Shown here one piece after another: positions 15,745-56,910 of a stretch of 64,000 bases of DNA. Position 1 is the stretch's first letter, and every line of letters begins with the position of its first letter. The notes below the pieces were generated by a model that saw nothing but the letters and a program-made list of their open reading frames with translations, ran no database searches and was not told where the DNA came from. The position numbers were made by a program, and so were the translations under genes. This DNA comes from a virus, in IMG/VR virus record IMGVR_UViG_3300033545_000001, positions 1 to 64,000 of that record; one strand, 5' to 3'.

Positions 15745-16388
15745 CAGCAGCCTCCGTAGCATTCGGCAGTGGTCCAGTAAAGCCCTTCCAGTATCTCAAC
15801 AGCGGCCTGCTCTGTCAAGCCCAACTGAAGAAGCTTGTAGCCGACCGTTAGGTACTCGATTTCAGCACGGTACTTGTAAAAGCCCTCTTCTCCAGGTATT
15901 GATTTGATCAAAGCCTGGAACTTCTCGTCGTTCATATAAACCTCCGATGAATGAGACGAGGGAGCGTCATATGACGCTCCCTCTAAGATGTTAAGCCTCG
16001 ATAATGGACCTGAAGTTTTTAGGAGTCAGGTTTGGAAAGCCCTTCTCAAACTTCTCAAGAGTACTGCTGGCTATATCAGAGGACATTACATTCTTATCAC
16101 AGTCCCAGCTAGTGAACTCATAAAGAATGTAGTCCGTCCCATTGGCAGCTGTCACTCGTGCTCGGACAAGAGCACGTGAGTGGAGGCCACTGGTGTAATA
16201 CTCACCAGACTTAGGGTTGAAATAGGATTTTAGAGAGGTCTCAGGATACGTCTCACGACCGCCATCATCCCCTTCTAGCCAGTACTCAACATTCGGACCG
16301 TTGGTGTTGATACCCTTCACCACAAGAATATCACTGTCTGTGAAGTAAGAAGTCGTAACACGCTGATCAAGTTTAAACTTAGGAATCA

Positions 16389-17490: not shown

Positions 17491-17532
17491 TATGTCATCG
17501 ATACTTGTGTCGATAGATATATTGTACTTCTC

Positions 17533-17626
17533 AGGCTGGACCCTGATACGCTTTCGTAGTGCTCTCTAAGCAAAACAAAGTAGAGCGGTCCAGACTACAG
17601 AAGCGCATCAGGGTTCAGTCTTTTTT
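17533..17626 (+). terminator. long hairpin with U-tract (terminator or attenuator)
   Basis: AGGCTGGACCCTGAT/ATCAGGGTTCAGTCT 15-bp stem with 2 G-U pairs, inner stems, then a T-run. Confidence 0.55.
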
Positions 17627-17674
17627 ATTGCCCTTTATAATTTAAAATAGCATGACGAGCTTTAACGTTCAGGA

Positions 17675-17840
17675 CGGCTTAGCCTGGTCTCAGCGAGACG
17701 AAAGAATGTGCTGGTATGGCCTCAGGGGGCGACCAGCCCCGGAAAACCTCGTAATCCAGCAGGAAATCCGGATGCGCATCCTACCTTCTCAGAGACTTGT
17801 CTCCGTGGGGGTAGGGGGCGCATTCCATTTCCTGACACCA
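17675..17840 (+). ncRNA. candidate novel structured RNA, copy A
   Basis: Conserved blocks and compensatory stems shared with 38999-39212 (minus). Confidence 0.6.
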
Positions 17841-18242
17841 GAGGGGAAAAGCGTTGTTAGTATTAAGGTTTAAGTATTAAGATCTAAGGAGAGGTATGCC
17901 CTGATGGGGTTGACCAGAGAGTTTATTACAGAGGTAACCGACTGTCCTGTGTGCGGTCAGCCTAAGGGTACCTCTTGCTCTGAGAAGGATGGGACGTTCA
18001 GGCAGAAGAACCATTTTGAGAGAATGCATAAAGCCCAAATGGAGAACCTGGATGTAGCTAATAGCTGGAAAACTGACTACATGCCTTCTTGGAAGGTTGT
18101 CAAAGAGCATAGTAGCTGTCCTGAGTGTGCCGCTGAGAAGGGGCAGCCCTGTATCGGTGTTGAAGGTATTCATAGAGCGCGTAGAGAAATGTTTTTAGTA
18201 CTCAAGACGATTAAACATATGGGTCAATGAAAGGAATTAGAT

Positions 18243-30083: not shown

Positions 30084-30178
30084 CCGGTACATCCGGTACA
30101 TCCGGAACATGCCAGGTCAGCGCATTGATCGTTATAAACATCCGGAACACCCTGGAGATTCTCCAGGGTGTTTTTATC

Positions 30179-34924: not shown

Positions 34925-35281
34925 ATGTTCAACACTAAAGCAATCAAGGCCGATCTGGAAGCCAAGCTGGCTCAGGTCAAGAAGGATGCAGAGAAGGCCG
35001 CTCAGACTCTGAGGGACCGTGTGGCGAACCTGGAGAAGACAGCTGAGGCTCTTGTCAAGGCCGATGCTCCAGTTGTGGCAGCCGATATTACCAAGATTGC
35101 AGCCGATCTGGCAGCCGTCGTTACCCGTGTAGAGGCTCTAGAGGCCACTGCCAAGGTTAAGGGCCTCCAGGAAGCTGCAACAGCCGCTGCGAACATCACT
35201 AAGGCAGCCAGCAAGGCTAAGGCAGCCAGCAAGGTTGAGGTAGCAGCACCAGCAGCAGAGGCTGTAACCGAGAAGGCCTGA
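34925..35281 (+). CDS. Ala/Lys-rich coiled-coil protein
   Basis: Strong RBS, biased codon use, hairpin downstream. Confidence 0.7.
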   Translation: MFNTKAIKADLEAKLAQVKKDAEKAAQTLRDRVANLEKTAEALVKADAPVVAADITKIAADLAAVVTRVEALEATAKVKGLQEAATAAANITKAASKAKAASKVEVAAPAAEAVTEKA

Positions 35282-36372
35282 TATTGACAACGGAGAAGGT
35301 CCCTGGTACCCTTGAGGTACTGGGGATTTTTCCTTTTAAGGAGCATGATGACTGACAAGAGAGCCCAGAGCAACAAGGTAAGAAGTCTTGAGAGCAGAGT
35401 GAAGACCCTGGAAAAAGGAATGCAGGCTCTAGCAGAGGCGTACTGGTCTCTCTATAGGGCCTACAACGCTAATATGCTGTATTTGGAGAAACATGGCATA
35501 TTGCCGCCATCCCCGCCTCCAGCTATTCACACTCCTGCCCATAATTAAGGAGAAGATATGTGCTTAGATGAAGAAGTTGTAATACTAGATATCCCAGAAG
35601 CAGAAATGCTGAAACGTTCAGACGATCCCTGGAAGGATGAGGAGAGATCGGACGGCAATTTCGGCCACTGTGGAGCCCACATCGTACACATCTACAAGAT
35701 TCCAAAAATGATCCCTATCGGGGAACCCGATAAGGTCAACGGTATTCTGTGGCAAATGTCCAAGGAGTCTGATACAGAGTTTGAGTATGAAGTAGATGTT
35801 CTCAAGCATCACTCTACTTGTGACGAGCTTCCGTACGACGTAGAATGCGCTTTAGATGCTCACCTGTGCCACGACGGTTGGCGTGAGCTGTTGGAGTCAA
35901 CCCAGTTCATGGAACCCTTCACAGAGACTCCTGAGGGCTTCTGGAAGGTATGGGTGTGCTGGGAGAAGTCTTGGGTGGACAACTGGAGTCACTGGGGATG
36001 GGACTATAGTGCGTACCTGGACTTCACCAGGATAGACGGCAAGGAATATGAAGCCTATGTATGAGGAAGTTACAGGAAGATCAGATGATAGAACTCCCAA
36101 TGAGCAGGACATGCTACGTTCTATCTATACTGAGAACCATCAGTATCAAGTGTGGGTGCACAGAGAGATGAAAGGCAACTTCTTACATGAAGAAGACGCT
36201 AAAAAGGCAGCAGCTCACATCTGGGAACACAAGGGTTACGATACAGTAAGATTCAGGTGGGAATCTCCTGTCTCTAATATACTATTACTGGAGATCCAAT
36301 CCCCTGCTGGGGACAGATGGATGACTTCAGATACTTTCATAGTACAGATAGACGTGAAAGTCTACAACTAGC

Positions 36373-36402
36373 AAAGGACCAGCTGATATCAGCTGGTCCT
36401 TT
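36373..36402. terminator. 30-bp perfect palindrome between convergent genes
   Basis: AAAGGACCAGCTGATATCAGCTGGTCCTTT. Confidence 0.65.
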
Positions 36403-36655: not shown

Positions 36656-37576
36656 CTAAAAATTACCGTACCCGACTTGTAGAGTACGAATGTTCATTTC
36701 TCTCCACAGTCTTACAATCTGATCACGATCATCCAAAGCGAACAGTACATTGTACTTACCGCGAATATGCTCATTGAATAGATCGTACTTTATGTTGAAG
36801 TCTGGCCTTTCACCATCTTCGTCTGCCCTCATGAGCAAGGTGCTGTCCATCTCGTCCAAGAAGAAGGCTTTTGCGAGCCACTTCTCAGTCTTGGCCTTGA
36901 CAGAAGGAGTTCCTTTACGCCCTGACAGGAAGAACACCTTGATAGGCGCGCCTCCTGCATCACGATAGGCTAGATCCAAAGCCCAGACTATCGAAGATAC
37001 AGTGTTGTCTACAAGATCCGTGTCGCATTTTTCGGCATCATAGGGATCTCTGCCATTGTGAATAGCCAAAGTACCGTCCAGGTCCACAATAATGGCATCA
37101 GGAAGGCCTCTAATCTTGCTAACCTTCTCCACCTGAGGCCATACGTTCATGTAAGCCTCTGACAGCTTCCATTTACCTATACTCTTTGCCATACTCCTGA
37201 TGACAGTTTCCCCAACGGGATTGTCTCGGAGAGCGTCTTGCTCAATGCACTTCTCGACGTTAACGTCAAGCAGACTGATCACCTTGAAGGAAGCTCTGCC
37301 GCCAATTCTGCGCCTGAGCAGTCCAGGGATCTTAGCATGCAAGTGTGTATTGTCTACGACAACATCCTGACCCTCCTCTACCGCAGCTTCTACAGCAGAC
37401 AGCATCGCCTCGATAGCGACCTTCTCCTTCTGCTTCGACCAAGATGCTTGACTTGTCCAGCCCATCATCTTGCGAGTGTCGTCAAGATTCACTCGCAGTG
37501 CGTTAATCTTCTTAGCCACAGTACTCTTTCCAGACCCAGGCAAACCGCAAAGCATAGTGATTTCAGGCTTAGCCAT
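36656..37576 (-). CDS. pseT: polynucleotide 5'-kinase/3'-phosphatase (T4 PseT-like)
   Basis: GLPGSGKST P-loop, DNTH, HAD motif DLDGTLA, DDRDQ, LQV..GNF. Confidence 0.93.
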   Translation of the reverse strand: MAKPEITMLCGLPGSGKSTVAKKINALRVNLDDTRKMMGWTSQASWSKQKEKVAIEAMLSAVEAAVEEGQDVVVDNTHLHAKIPGLLRRRIGGRASFKVISLLDVNVEKCIEQDALRDNPVGETVIRSMAKSIGKWKLSEAYMNVWPQVEKVSKIRGLPDAIIVDLDGTLAIHNGRDPYDAEKCDTDLVDNTVSSIVWALDLAYRDAGGAPIKVFFLSGRKGTPSVKAKTEKWLAKAFFLDEMDSTLLMRADEDGERPDFNIKYDLFNEHIRGKYNVLFALDDRDQIVRLWREMNIRTLQVGYGNF

Positions 37577-37712
37577 TGTTTAAGTTCCTCTCTGCTACAG
37601 CTAGACACATATTTATAAAATCTATTAAAGAAGGCATAAAGAAAGGCCTGCCATCACTGTCACCACTGGTTTCTTGTTCATGGTTTCAGTATAGCAGGCC
37701 TTCTCTGATCGG

Positions 37713-38942
37713 TCAACTGTCAGCTGCGAATGGCTTGGTAGCTGCTGGCTTGAACAACTTCCAAGCCAGCTCTTCCAATTTCTTGTTATTCTGGTCTAGA
37801 AGGAAGAATAGTCCAGGCCTTACCAGGTTATATTTACTGGCTACTAGAAGAGCAAACTCCTTGCGATATTCCCCTGCCACAGGCAGATGGTCTCTATTGA
37901 AGTCAAGCTCTTTCAAAATATTGTCGAATGTTTCATTAACATGATCAATGTAGTCGTAAACATCTTTGATAAGACTGTTATTTACACTTATTACCCAGTC
38001 ACGAAATTCATCTGGGACATTCTCAAGGTATCCATAGAGGTCCAATCCTTGAGATACAACTTCCCAGATTGTTCGTTCTGTGCACCCTGTGAGTACTTTG
38101 TGCAACCGGAGGTAGTCCCCCAGCTTAATCTTACAGCGAGTACCGCTGCTGAAACGGATAACATAACCTTCTGCTTCAATACCAGAAGTGGTTTCGTCAT
38201 AATCTGATCCTTCACCAAATAAAATGTTTACATCGGCCATGGTTTGAAGATCGTCTAGACTAACACCTTGAGGCTCGAATTCAGGAACACTGCTGCCTAT
38301 AGGGTTCCAATCATTCTTGACGACTTGATTCAAGACCTCCTCCCCTGTAAGATTCCAGTAAGAAGTTATAAGAACCAAATCTTCACGGCTACCATAGTCT
38401 ACCACAATGCGATTGTCTGGATAGATTATCTCACATACATAAGTGTAGTCTACCAGCAAGGGATTGAACCAGCACCACACACAATCCGGGGCATTACCTT
38501 CCCCAGGATGTATGCAGCAGCCAGTAATTATTTTGTCCCTGAGGTATTTAGTAGCCCAAACAGCTTGATCGGAATGGAAAGAACCCTTAGTGGCGACATG
38601 CCACTCCCCAGCGTAGAAAAAGACAGTGGCCATAGAGCCGTCCATCTTAGAGAAGATCTGAAAATCTTCAGTCAGAGGAAGTCCTTGAGCGTAAGACTTG
38701 CCGTTAACATACTCTGAGTAGTTGAAGAACTTAGGCATACAGAACGCAACAATCTCTCCTGAGCTGTCAACCACAAGCCCCCTGCATTTACGAGTAGCAT
38801 CATTCCACACTGCGTCGAACTGAGCCAGCTCCGCATAAGTATACAAAGTCAAGGGCAGCTCACTATGCTTGACTACTCGAACCCAACCAGCTTCGATGGA
38901 AGCCTCAAGCTCTGCTACATCTAGGTACTCATCCAGCTGCAT
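37713..38942 (-). CDS. rnlA: RNA ligase (T4 Rnl1-like)
   Basis: CRGLV, PKFFN, KMDGS (motif I), EGYVI, KIK; adjacent to PNK. Confidence 0.9.
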   Translation of the reverse strand: MQLDEYLDVAELEASIEAGWVRVVKHSELPLTLYTYAELAQFDAVWNDATRKCRGLVVDSSGEIVAFCMPKFFNYSEYVNGKSYAQGLPLTEDFQIFSKMDGSMATVFFYAGEWHVATKGSFHSDQAVWATKYLRDKIITGCCIHPGEGNAPDCVWCWFNPLLVDYTYVCEIIYPDNRIVVDYGSREDLVLITSYWNLTGEEVLNQVVKNDWNPIGSSVPEFEPQGVSLDDLQTMADVNILFGEGSDYDETTSGIEAEGYVIRFSSGTRCKIKLGDYLRLHKVLTGCTERTIWEVVSQGLDLYGYLENVPDEFRDWVISVNNSLIKDVYDYIDHVNETFDNILKELDFNRDHLPVAGEYRKEFALLVASKYNLVRPGLFFLLDQNNKKLEELAWKLFKPAATKPFAADS

Positions 38943-38998
38943 GGTGACAGTCCTCTCACTTGATCTTAAGACTAACATCTGTTAGGGTTTTTCTTGTA

Positions 38999-39212
38999 TG
39001 GTACAGGAAATGAAATGCGCCCCCTACCCCCGCTACCCAGGTCAGGGGCATAACCCCTGCTGGACGATAGGTAGGAAGCCATTCGAAATTCCTTGTCCAC
39101 ATGGACTTCGAGGTGTTCCGACGATGCCCGCCCCCTGAGGCCATGACATCAATCTTTCGCTCTTATGGAGCCTGGCTATGCGGTCCAGATACAGAGTGCT
39201 CAGGTTAAGCCG
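38999..39212 (-). ncRNA. candidate novel structured RNA, copy B (leader of the RNA ligase-PNK operon)
   Basis: Homologous to 17675-17840; lies just downstream of a TTGACA-N17-TAGAGT promoter. Confidence 0.6.
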
Positions 39213-39230
39213 AGCAGACGTACGTGAGTA

Positions 39231-39259
39231 ACTCTACCGTACTTGGAGCTGATTGTCAA
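39231..39259 (-). promoter_or_regulatory. sigma70-type promoter
   Basis: TTGACA-atcagctccaagtacgg-TAGAGT on the minus strand. Confidence 0.7.
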
Positions 39260-39896
39260 GTAGGCTCTGAGAGCCATTTTAAGGACTTCGTGGCCACGCC
39301 TGGCTGTACCTGTCGGCTACCTTGCCAAAACGGCTGGAGAAGGCCTTCTGTGCCTCTTCTAGGCTCTTACAGGACCATAGCGTCCTGAGTCCTACGAAGG
39401 TCGATTCTAGGAAGGCATCCGCTATCATGAGTATCATAATCAGCACGACGAAGGTGATGACGAAGGCAGCAGCTCCAGCTACAATAGCTAGTGCGGAGGC
39501 TGCTACTGCTCCTAAAGATAAGTATTTTATAGTGCGAGATAGTAAATAGATCATAGTTCCTCCTTTCTATGACTCAAACCTACCACGAGAGTTGACAGAT
39601 GTCAAGCGACAACAAGAGCAATGAGCAGCTTTCTGAGCGTCCTACCTGTGCAGGGTGTTCACAGTCCATTTGGAGTGGCATGTATTATATAGTTACTGTG
39701 GGCTTCATTGATGATATTATCTCTGCTGATGAGGAAGAATTGGACCATTACCATCTTCATTGCTTGGATCCTTACATTGTCCTATTCGGCCAGCTGCCTG
39801 GGGAGACTATTGCCATTACTTTGCACGGGGATTGACATTTCTTTATTGAATATGGTATGATGTCTATACCAACCCTTCTAGGAAATAGGTATTAGG

Positions 39897-49202: not shown

Positions 49203-49274
49203 TCTTCAGTGGTGTAATTGGCAGCACGAATGACTCTGAATCATTTAGTGGAGGTTCGAATCCTCCCTGGAGAG
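49203..49274 (+). tRNA. tRNA-Gln (anticodon CTG)
   Basis: Acceptor TCTTCAG/CTGGAGA, D arm GTG/CAC, anticodon arm AATGA-CTCTGAA-TCATT, T arm GGAGG-TTCGAAT-CCTCC; CCA not encoded. Confidence 0.92.
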
Positions 49275-49297
49275 CAGTTAACCTTGTAGGGAATCTC

Positions 49298-56877: not shown

Positions 56878-56910
56878 AAAGATCCCACACTGTGTCAGTG
56901 TGGGATCTTT
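56878..56910 (+). terminator. intrinsic terminator
   Basis: AAAGATCCCACACTG-TGT-CAGTGTGGGATCTTT then more Ts. Confidence 0.65.

Follow-up and report, generated by a model that had tools for sequence, protein, structure and literature searches.

An uncatalogued structured leader RNA in two diverged copies ahead of unrelated genes in a large phage

The window, which is the first 64 kb of a viral record of 119,392 bases, contains two copies of a structured element that share the same orientation and placement relative to the next gene. Copy B (39192–38996, minus strand) stands ahead of an Rnl1-type RNA ligase gene (37713–38942, minus strand, ATG at 38942; PF09511, 4.2e-17) and a polynucleotide kinase/phosphatase gene (36656–37576, minus strand; PF25109, 2.1e-39; AAA_33, 2.5e-13), domain matches that bear out the sequence-only reading of this copy as the leader of a ligase and kinase-phosphatase gene pair. 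The TTGACA-17-TAGAGT promoter that had been proposed upstream was recovered by a promoter scan on the minus strand (39259–39231, 10/12 matches); transcription is predicted to start near 39224, and the element begins about 32 nt later. At its other end, the ligase ATG follows the element by 53 nt, in line with the roughly 55 nt first given. Within the gap between the two genes (37577–37712, minus strand, 136 nt) lie a promoter-like TTGACC-17-TATACT and a GAAGGCCTGC...GCAGGCCTTC hairpin with a T-rich tail; a relative from sequencing run X4 is 102 nt shorter here (joint 37540/37643). In RNA run X9, whose contigs cannot show absence, transcript ends or level, two contigs were found, lying only inside the ligase and kinase genes.

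From 5′ to 3′ the element consists of P1 (4 pairs, 9-nt loop), P2 (4–5 pairs), the block GAAAGA, P3 (6 pairs closing an invariant 16-nt loop, ATGGCCTCAGGGGGCG), the block CGGAA.ACCTCG and a long hairpin, P5. On the minus strand, copy B is preceded by an extra 5′ hairpin of its own, TGCTC-GGCTTAACCT-GAGCA (39216–39197, from folding), the loop of which repeats the GGCTTA[A/G]CC block of P1 in copy A. Alignment and pair tests then place P1 (CTGG/CCAG, 39188–39172) and P2 (GCTC/GAGC, 39171–39159), followed by GAAAGA (39158–39153, invariant relative to copy A), P3 (GATGTC/GGCATC around the invariant loop, 39150–39123, from the pair test) and the aligned block CGGAACACCTCG (39120–39109). Next comes a small predicted hairpin, GTCC-ATGT-GGAC (39106–39095), which, of the two copies, only B has at this point. 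P5 itself (39094–39005) folds as a long interrupted hairpin with a variable tip and a duplex energy of −29.0 kcal/mol. An aligned, conserved pre-start block, GTTAGTCTTAAGATC (within 38940–38976), and the ribosome site GAGAGG (38957–38952) complete the leader.

Copy A (17666–17842, plus strand) has the same parts: P1 (CAGG/CCTG, 17670–17686) and P2 (GTCTC/GAGAC, 17687–17699), both from the pair test, GAAAGA (17700–17705, invariant relative to copy B), P3 (GCTGGT/ACCAGC with the invariant loop, 17710–17737, pair test), the aligned block CGGAAAACCTCG (17740–17751) and P5 (AGGAAAT...TCCTACCT...tip...GGGGGTAGGGGGCGCATTCCATTTCCT, 17761–17833; duplex −36.8 kcal/mol). The linker that follows (within 17834–17906, plus strand) contains GTTAGTATTAAG and then, by eye, a 14-nt near-repeat of it. 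A ribosome site, AAGGAGAGG (17886–17894), precedes a zinc-finger gene on the plus strand (ATG at 17904; PF24623, 2.5e-10). Copy A heads a plus-strand island of small genes (the PF24623 zinc finger, DUF6275 and others) amid minus-strand genes. The scan gave no sigma-70-like promoter for this copy; by eye, there is a weak TTCAGT-16-TATAAT upstream, with a perfect TATAAT (17636–17641) and a poor −35. Just upstream of copy A, in a divergent intergenic region, an imperfect hairpin of about 97 nt (17529–17625) is followed by a T-run.

The record is 89% complete by CheckV and has a G+C content of 46.2%. Many small genes, predominantly on the minus strand, fill the left 39.5 kb of the window; beyond about 39.6 kb come the replication and structural genes, which are on the plus strand. 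Among named phages, the best match of the DNA polymerase is Microbacterium phage Magritte (37.2%); the RNA ligase is 36.4% identical to that of Arthrobacter phage Seahorse, and blastn against named phages gave no match. Searches with the RNA ligase found four loci in viral contigs (26–36% identity) and none in genome contigs, and the DNA polymerase found none in viral contigs. Near-identical DNA occurs in sequencing runs labelled as root, soil, leaf-litter and water metagenomes, and the carrier is a large phage of soil or root. A tRNA-Gln(CTG) gene lies at 49203–49275 of the window, and a second tRNA-like gene (record 119210–119261; anticodon TTG by eye) is 87% identical to window positions 49210–49262. 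Perfect or near-perfect intergenic palindromes of 26–34 nt, which are probably two-way terminators, were seen at window positions 36373–36402, 1266–1293, 2899–2926, 15958–15983, 30146–30172 and 56878–56910 and further along the record at 68017–68044 and 77092–77125. The early region also carries short repeats that are 88–100% identical (24443–24484/24856–24897, 23175–23215/31065–31105 and 32956–32987/33028–33059); the first pair, read on the minus strand, resembles a common ribosome site and start of two paralogous small genes.

Copies A and B are the only ones in the whole record, as judged by both BLAST and R1, a covariance model made from the two copies, which scores them at 224.8 and 201.6 bits (the latter being copy A) and has no other match in the record at E ≤ 10. 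A local alignment (17668–17842, plus strand, against 38996–39192, minus strand) gives 80% column identity. Both copies were found where the sequence-only reading had put them, and the shared blocks that it listed are present in each: GAAAGA, the stem round the 16-nt loop, CGGAA.ACCTCG and the long 3′ hairpin with GGGGGTAGGGGGCGCATT.CATTTCCTG. Its CGGCTTA-type alignment of the 5′ block is defensible but ambiguous, as two segments of copy B resemble the first hairpin of copy A, one at 39216–39197 (CGGCTTAACCTG) and the other at 39188–39172, the CTGG/CCAG of which covaries with the CAGG/CCTG of copy A. The earlier alignment and that of MAFFT are both defensible at this end, and copy B may carry a partial duplication there.

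The 3′ boundary moves outward. The element had been taken to end at ACCA; beyond a linker between P5 and the pre-start block that varies between A and B, similarity resumes with GTTAGT.TTAAG...ATC.AG.GAGAGG up to the ribosome site. Because the similarity carries on into the next gene's ribosome site, the conserved unit is the whole 5′ leader. A comparison with the end of a tRNA also lapses, since ACCA is altered in relatives (among the differences listed).

The invariant loop and CGGAA.ACCTC are confined in the genome to copies A and B, and GGCTTA[AG]CC occurs three times. An octamer, AGGGGGCG, occurs four times in the genome, always within the element and twice per copy: one occurrence lies open in the loop of P3, and the other belongs to the 3′ strand of P5.

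All 14 pairs of P1–P3 are kept in both copies, seven of them through two-sided changes (8/8 pairs and four such changes in P1 and P2; 6/6 and three in P3). These include the two covarying stems named in the sequence-only reading, GCTGGT/ACCAGC against GATGTC/GGCATC and GTCTC/GAGAC against GCTC/GAGC. Over a 39-pair structure (alignment A3), 92.3% of 78 cells are paired and 7/39 pairs show two-sided changes; column shuffles reached the observed values for the whole structure in 3 of 500 trials, and sliding the partners by 1–3 columns left 0–2 compensatory pairs and 37–56% pairing. These statistics come from two full sequences and seven events, a limited sample with an unambiguous result. The 25 modelled pairs of P5 are 88% paired over A and B, its stem sequence is strongly conserved to the point of being nearly invariant, and its tip is free to vary. 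Outside the helices, the loop, GAAAGA and CGGAA.ACCTCG are invariant between A and B, the loop and CGGAA.ACCTCG being the most conserved single-stranded parts.

A coding origin was rejected. The copies differ by indels of 2, 5, 6 and 11 nt, and, on our own reading, the open reading frames that overlap A and B read the invariant loop in different frames, so there is no common frame. The helices contain G–U pairs, which become A–C mismatches on the opposite strand, and the fold is therefore strand-specific; the sense strand folds 16–21 kcal/mol better than the antisense strand (−99.2 against −83.6 and −113.6 against −92.7). The shuffles, the strand asymmetry and the indels together uphold the earlier proposal of a non-coding, strand-specific structured RNA with compensatory changes.

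Other proposed or predicted contacts fared less well. A pseudoknot between the 5′ CCTG and a CAGG loop had been suggested, and it is unsupported because in copy A the CCTG is already the 3′ strand of the P1 hairpin. A CAGGGGG–UUUCCUG helix and other conserved alternatives were dropped, being invariant and without informative variation. P5, at −29 to −37 kcal/mol, is far more stable than any competing duplex (−8 to −18 kcal/mol), so a simple two-state switch is not evident. RNAalifold pairs the ribosome site as CCUC–GAGG, and single-sequence folds use different partners in A and in B; masking of the ribosome site was dropped on account of this inconsistency.

The element had not been recognized as a known family in the sequence-only reading, and neither copy has a family-level match in Rfam 15 (4,227 models), the only match in a scan of the window being the tRNA at 49203–49274. 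Rfam gave no match at E ≤ 10 for 38800–39400; for 17500–18000 it gave ten, all to microRNA-precursor models and the best at 28.7 bits against a threshold of 69. The hairpin at 17529–17625 matches such models only, and these matches merely reflect hairpin shape. T-box leaders combine a stem I carrying a specifier loop with a T-box antiterminator that has a UGGN bulge, ahead of a terminator or ribosome-site helix. A T-box identity was rejected, as there is no Rfam match at E ≤ 10 (the T-box model being assumed to be included); moreover, UGGC and CAG both fall, by eye, inside one 16-nt loop, which could not span a tRNA, and so the T-box reading would fail. Full-text searches of the literature gave no description of the element. 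In a published catalogue of 10,006 candidate RNAs (PMC10690425), the descriptions searched place no candidate before an RNA ligase; one candidate, DNAVirus_8917, precedes HAD_PNKP-C genes. The same paper also refers to the T4 gene 32 operator.

Motif- and protein-seeded scans of viral, metagenome and genome contigs gave no full-length relative. In viral contigs, the invariant 16-mer was found at six loci, by eye none similar, and a 17-mer of the G-rich strand at eight, again none similar; six of these eight (L010, L011, L012, L014, L016 and L017) share a conserved block that starts with GGGGTAGGGGGCGCATTG directly after a TTGTGATATAAT-like promoter. Apart from the 17-mer, that block has no relation to the element described here. 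The loop combined with CGGAA.ACCTCG was found nowhere in viral contigs, GAAAGA with the loop at three loci, all by chance, and CGGAA.ACC...AAGTCCA...GGAC at four loci with no R1 match. Among 67 loci in metagenome contigs, R1 matched the motif itself only, save for L058 (19.7 bits, P3 only; upstream of a ClpC-type gene, as read from the ORF translation) and L029 (12.8 bits, E 0.074). The records of protein-level relatives contained no R1 match in 5/5 cases.

Contig alignment, which covered four of the sequencing runs, was more informative. One of them, X2, is near-identical to the window and so is not independent; X3 and X4 represent related phages. In X4, the body of the ligase (38139–38916) has 17 differences in 778, and the leader (38956–39237) is only about 80% alike, with 34 substitutions and 23 gap letters. 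This similarity ends at 39237, at the −10 hexamer, with a 297-nt skip. X3 and X4 both have a joint at 38916/38956, just before the ribosome site, where 247 other letters take the place of 39. They carry a diverged third version of the leader, flanked on either side by DNA other than that of the window, ahead of a near-identical ligase gene. At the loose end of X3, the differences listed alter ACCTCG and the small-hairpin loop and spare CGGAA and the small-hairpin stem.

These contexts bear on the link to RNA repair that the sequence-only reading had drawn from the ligase and kinase. Copy A leads an unrelated zinc-finger and DUF6275 cluster, and in the relatives 247 other letters part the leader from the ligase body; a specific tie to RNA repair is thus not supported, and the element belongs to a promoter–leader module. 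The relatives suggest a discrete module whose divergence or exchange outpaces that of the adjoining DNA and which can precede a different first gene.

The core of P5 led to a separate RNA family. A scan of viral contigs for TCCTACCT, 15–45 nt and GGGGGTAGGGG found 33 loci (L092–L124), 22 of them distinct, and 24/33 form one RNA family of three types on contigs of roughly 30–44 kb (for example, L093:531-655:+, L102:520-640:- and L094:585-700:-); Rfam gave no match for it. The family combines a GNRA hairpin, whose stem covaries, with GGGGC[AG]G[AG]AACTCCAT, inner hairpins and the core hairpin, after which comes a U-rich run. By eye, a promoter-like site often lies ahead of the RNA; in three contexts examined the RNA points away from a neighbouring exonuclease gene, and in one it adjoins a sigma-factor gene. 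The core TCCTACCT...GGGGGTAGGGG is common to this family and the element, though imposed by the search pattern. Flanking letters of type 3 equal those of copy B at 16/18 and 16/20 positions, with local scores of 26 against a shuffled mean of 14.7 (reached in 1/300 shuffles) and 18 against 11.9 (8/300), uncorrected over 26 comparisons. A profile of the family's 5′ part (nhmmer; 22 places in the genome at E ≤ 100) found nothing in A or B. A family model, R2, gives copy A 14.6 bits and copy B 14.2, the same as an unrelated window site (35260–35352, 14.2 bits). As a control, none of 29 chance bacterial and archaeal loci with the same core is family-like; the matched control loci score 6.9–16.8 bits with R2, three of them above copy A and eight equalling or exceeding copy B. 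Membership was rejected and the element is not filed under this family, because the 5′-part profile and the R2 control both speak against it; type 3 and copy B may still be related through a local module. Separately, an identical long perfect hairpin was seen at L137, L146, L155 and L160, on tiny contigs of Deinococcus, Chryseobacterium, Moraxellaceae and Psychrobacter MAGs with similar accession numbers, and it is probably a single phage or contaminant mis-binned four times.

The element is a real, uncatalogued structured leader RNA that forms a new family. Its fold is placed in cis, is strand-specific and is under selection. The reading that we favour, at a probability of about one half, is that of a cis-regulatory structured leader with a partner acting in trans. 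The element would head two transcription units, each with its own promoter, as their structured 5′ untranslated leader, and the copies would be two old paralogues retained by selection on the RNA fold. The sense strand folds into three short 5′ hairpins with invariant single-stranded blocks and then a very stable hairpin of about 30 pairs, and it continues without a terminator-like U-run into the pre-start block and the ribosome site. The 5′ domain may serve as a docking surface for a trans factor, be it a protein of phage or host or, with lower probability, a small ligand. Acting jointly with P5, this domain could set how much of the transcript is translated, stabilized or read through, and we infer that the element regulates its own transcript in this way. 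Were both leaders to act so, the two gene clusters would be switched together after infection. The double display of AGGGGGCG, in the P3 loop and again in P5, would fit a binder with two sites or mimicry of the hairpin strand by the loop. The stretch that begins at the −10 hexamer and stops shortly ahead of the ribosome site behaves as one unit, which recombination would place in front of different first genes. Copy A's lack of a promoter at the level of the scan counts against the leader reading, as do the inconsistent masking of the ribosome site, the lack of an evident two-state switch and the changed ACCUCG block at the loose end of the X3 relative.

Known leaders provide a partial parallel. 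Autogenous operators and riboswitch leaders likewise place a structured 5′ leader with conserved unpaired nucleotides near the ribosome site, and the covarying helices and invariant loops of P1–P3 are those expected of a riboswitch-type aptamer, although in two sequences only. The element differs from them in having no clear alternative fold and in its downstream genes; since the genes behind A and B are unrelated, autogenous control by one product is unlikely.

The compact fold and the invariant, exposed loops would also suit a stable small RNA released from the 5′ ends of the messages, where transcription would terminate or the RNA be cut at the long hairpin or beyond it, and serving elsewhere as a regulator, decoy or scaffold. 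The core and flanks of the copy B hairpin do resemble the 3′ hairpin of the apparently stand-alone units of the phages of about 40 kb. Those units have a U-rich run after the hairpin, which neither A nor B has, and here homology extends to the ribosome site. The link to the 40-kb family failed its control, and the genome offers no complementary target for the invariant loop, the other GGCCTCAGG matches being of the same sense and inside genes. We regard such a trans-acting RNA as unlikely. Nothing in the sequence favours a ribozyme, a substrate or a decoy role, as had been entertained at first.

P5 could instead be a constitutive processing or stability signal, an RNase III-type site or a 5′ stabilizer for which the rest is structural context, with no sensing involved. 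RNase III processing hairpins occur in the early leader of T7 (R0.3) and in that of lambda N, and RNase III sites need little sequence conservation. Like those, P5 is a long interrupted hairpin between promoter and first gene that is repeated in the genome; with about 25–30 pairs, small bulges and −29 to −37 kcal/mol, it has the 20 or so largely continuous pairs expected at the least of an RNase III site, and it combines a conserved stem with a variable tip in both copies. It differs from them in the strong conservation of its stem sequence and in its attachment to a 5′ domain that covaries and has invariant loops. A processing signal leaves the three covarying 5′ hairpins, the 16-nt invariant loop and CGGAA.ACCTCG unexplained; we regard this account, too, as unlikely.

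Two paralogous copies, one of them directly after a promoter, call to mind RNAs that modify the polymerase. The put RNA of HK022 consists of two stem-loops in about 70 nt directly downstream of an early promoter and lets the polymerase read through terminators; HK022 putL and putR and the lambda nut leaders are, like A and B, paralogous cis RNA elements that follow phage promoters and head separate units. Put-type antitermination or a leaky attenuator, in which P5 and its AUU.CAUUUCC tail terminate some transcripts, might further draw on the moderately U-rich tail after a G+C-rich stem and on the hairpin and promoter-like signals inside the ligase–kinase unit. The position after a promoter holds for copy B; for copy A the scan gives none. 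However, the element, at about 180–230 nt, is some three times the length of put RNAs, its three short hairpins and 30-pair hairpin are a different fold with no likeness in Rfam, and the scan found no terminator-like site at the hairpin or elsewhere in the region of either copy. We consider a role of this kind very improbable. That the element has no RNA function and is instead a promoter region that was duplicated, or a site that works as DNA (an inverted repeat bound by a protein, for instance), is scarcely credible. There are only two copies, and it is conceivable that the invariant blocks are bound as DNA, but P1–P3 contain seven compensatory pairs and no broken one, the G–U pairs would be A–C mismatches on the other strand, which folds 16–21 kcal/mol less well, and structure is retained despite divergence to about 80% identity.

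The leader reading also has a bolder form, to which we assign very little weight: a phage-specific sensor RNA of a new class, riboswitch-like or protein-gated, that switches on the repair pair and the second small-gene cluster together. If that were true, the trigger would be a host attack on phage translation, for example broken tRNA ends or a defence signal, and the twice-displayed AGGGGGCG word would be the switch.

The reach of the element seems narrow, one phage lineage among the data searched, which limits its general importance for now. The cis-regulatory leader proposed here is nevertheless cleanly defined, with two old paralogues, seven compensatory changes, clear invariant loops and module-like behaviour in relatives, and it fronts a counter-defence-type gene pair. 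It offers a tractable case of how large phages may co-ordinate separate gene cassettes at the RNA level.
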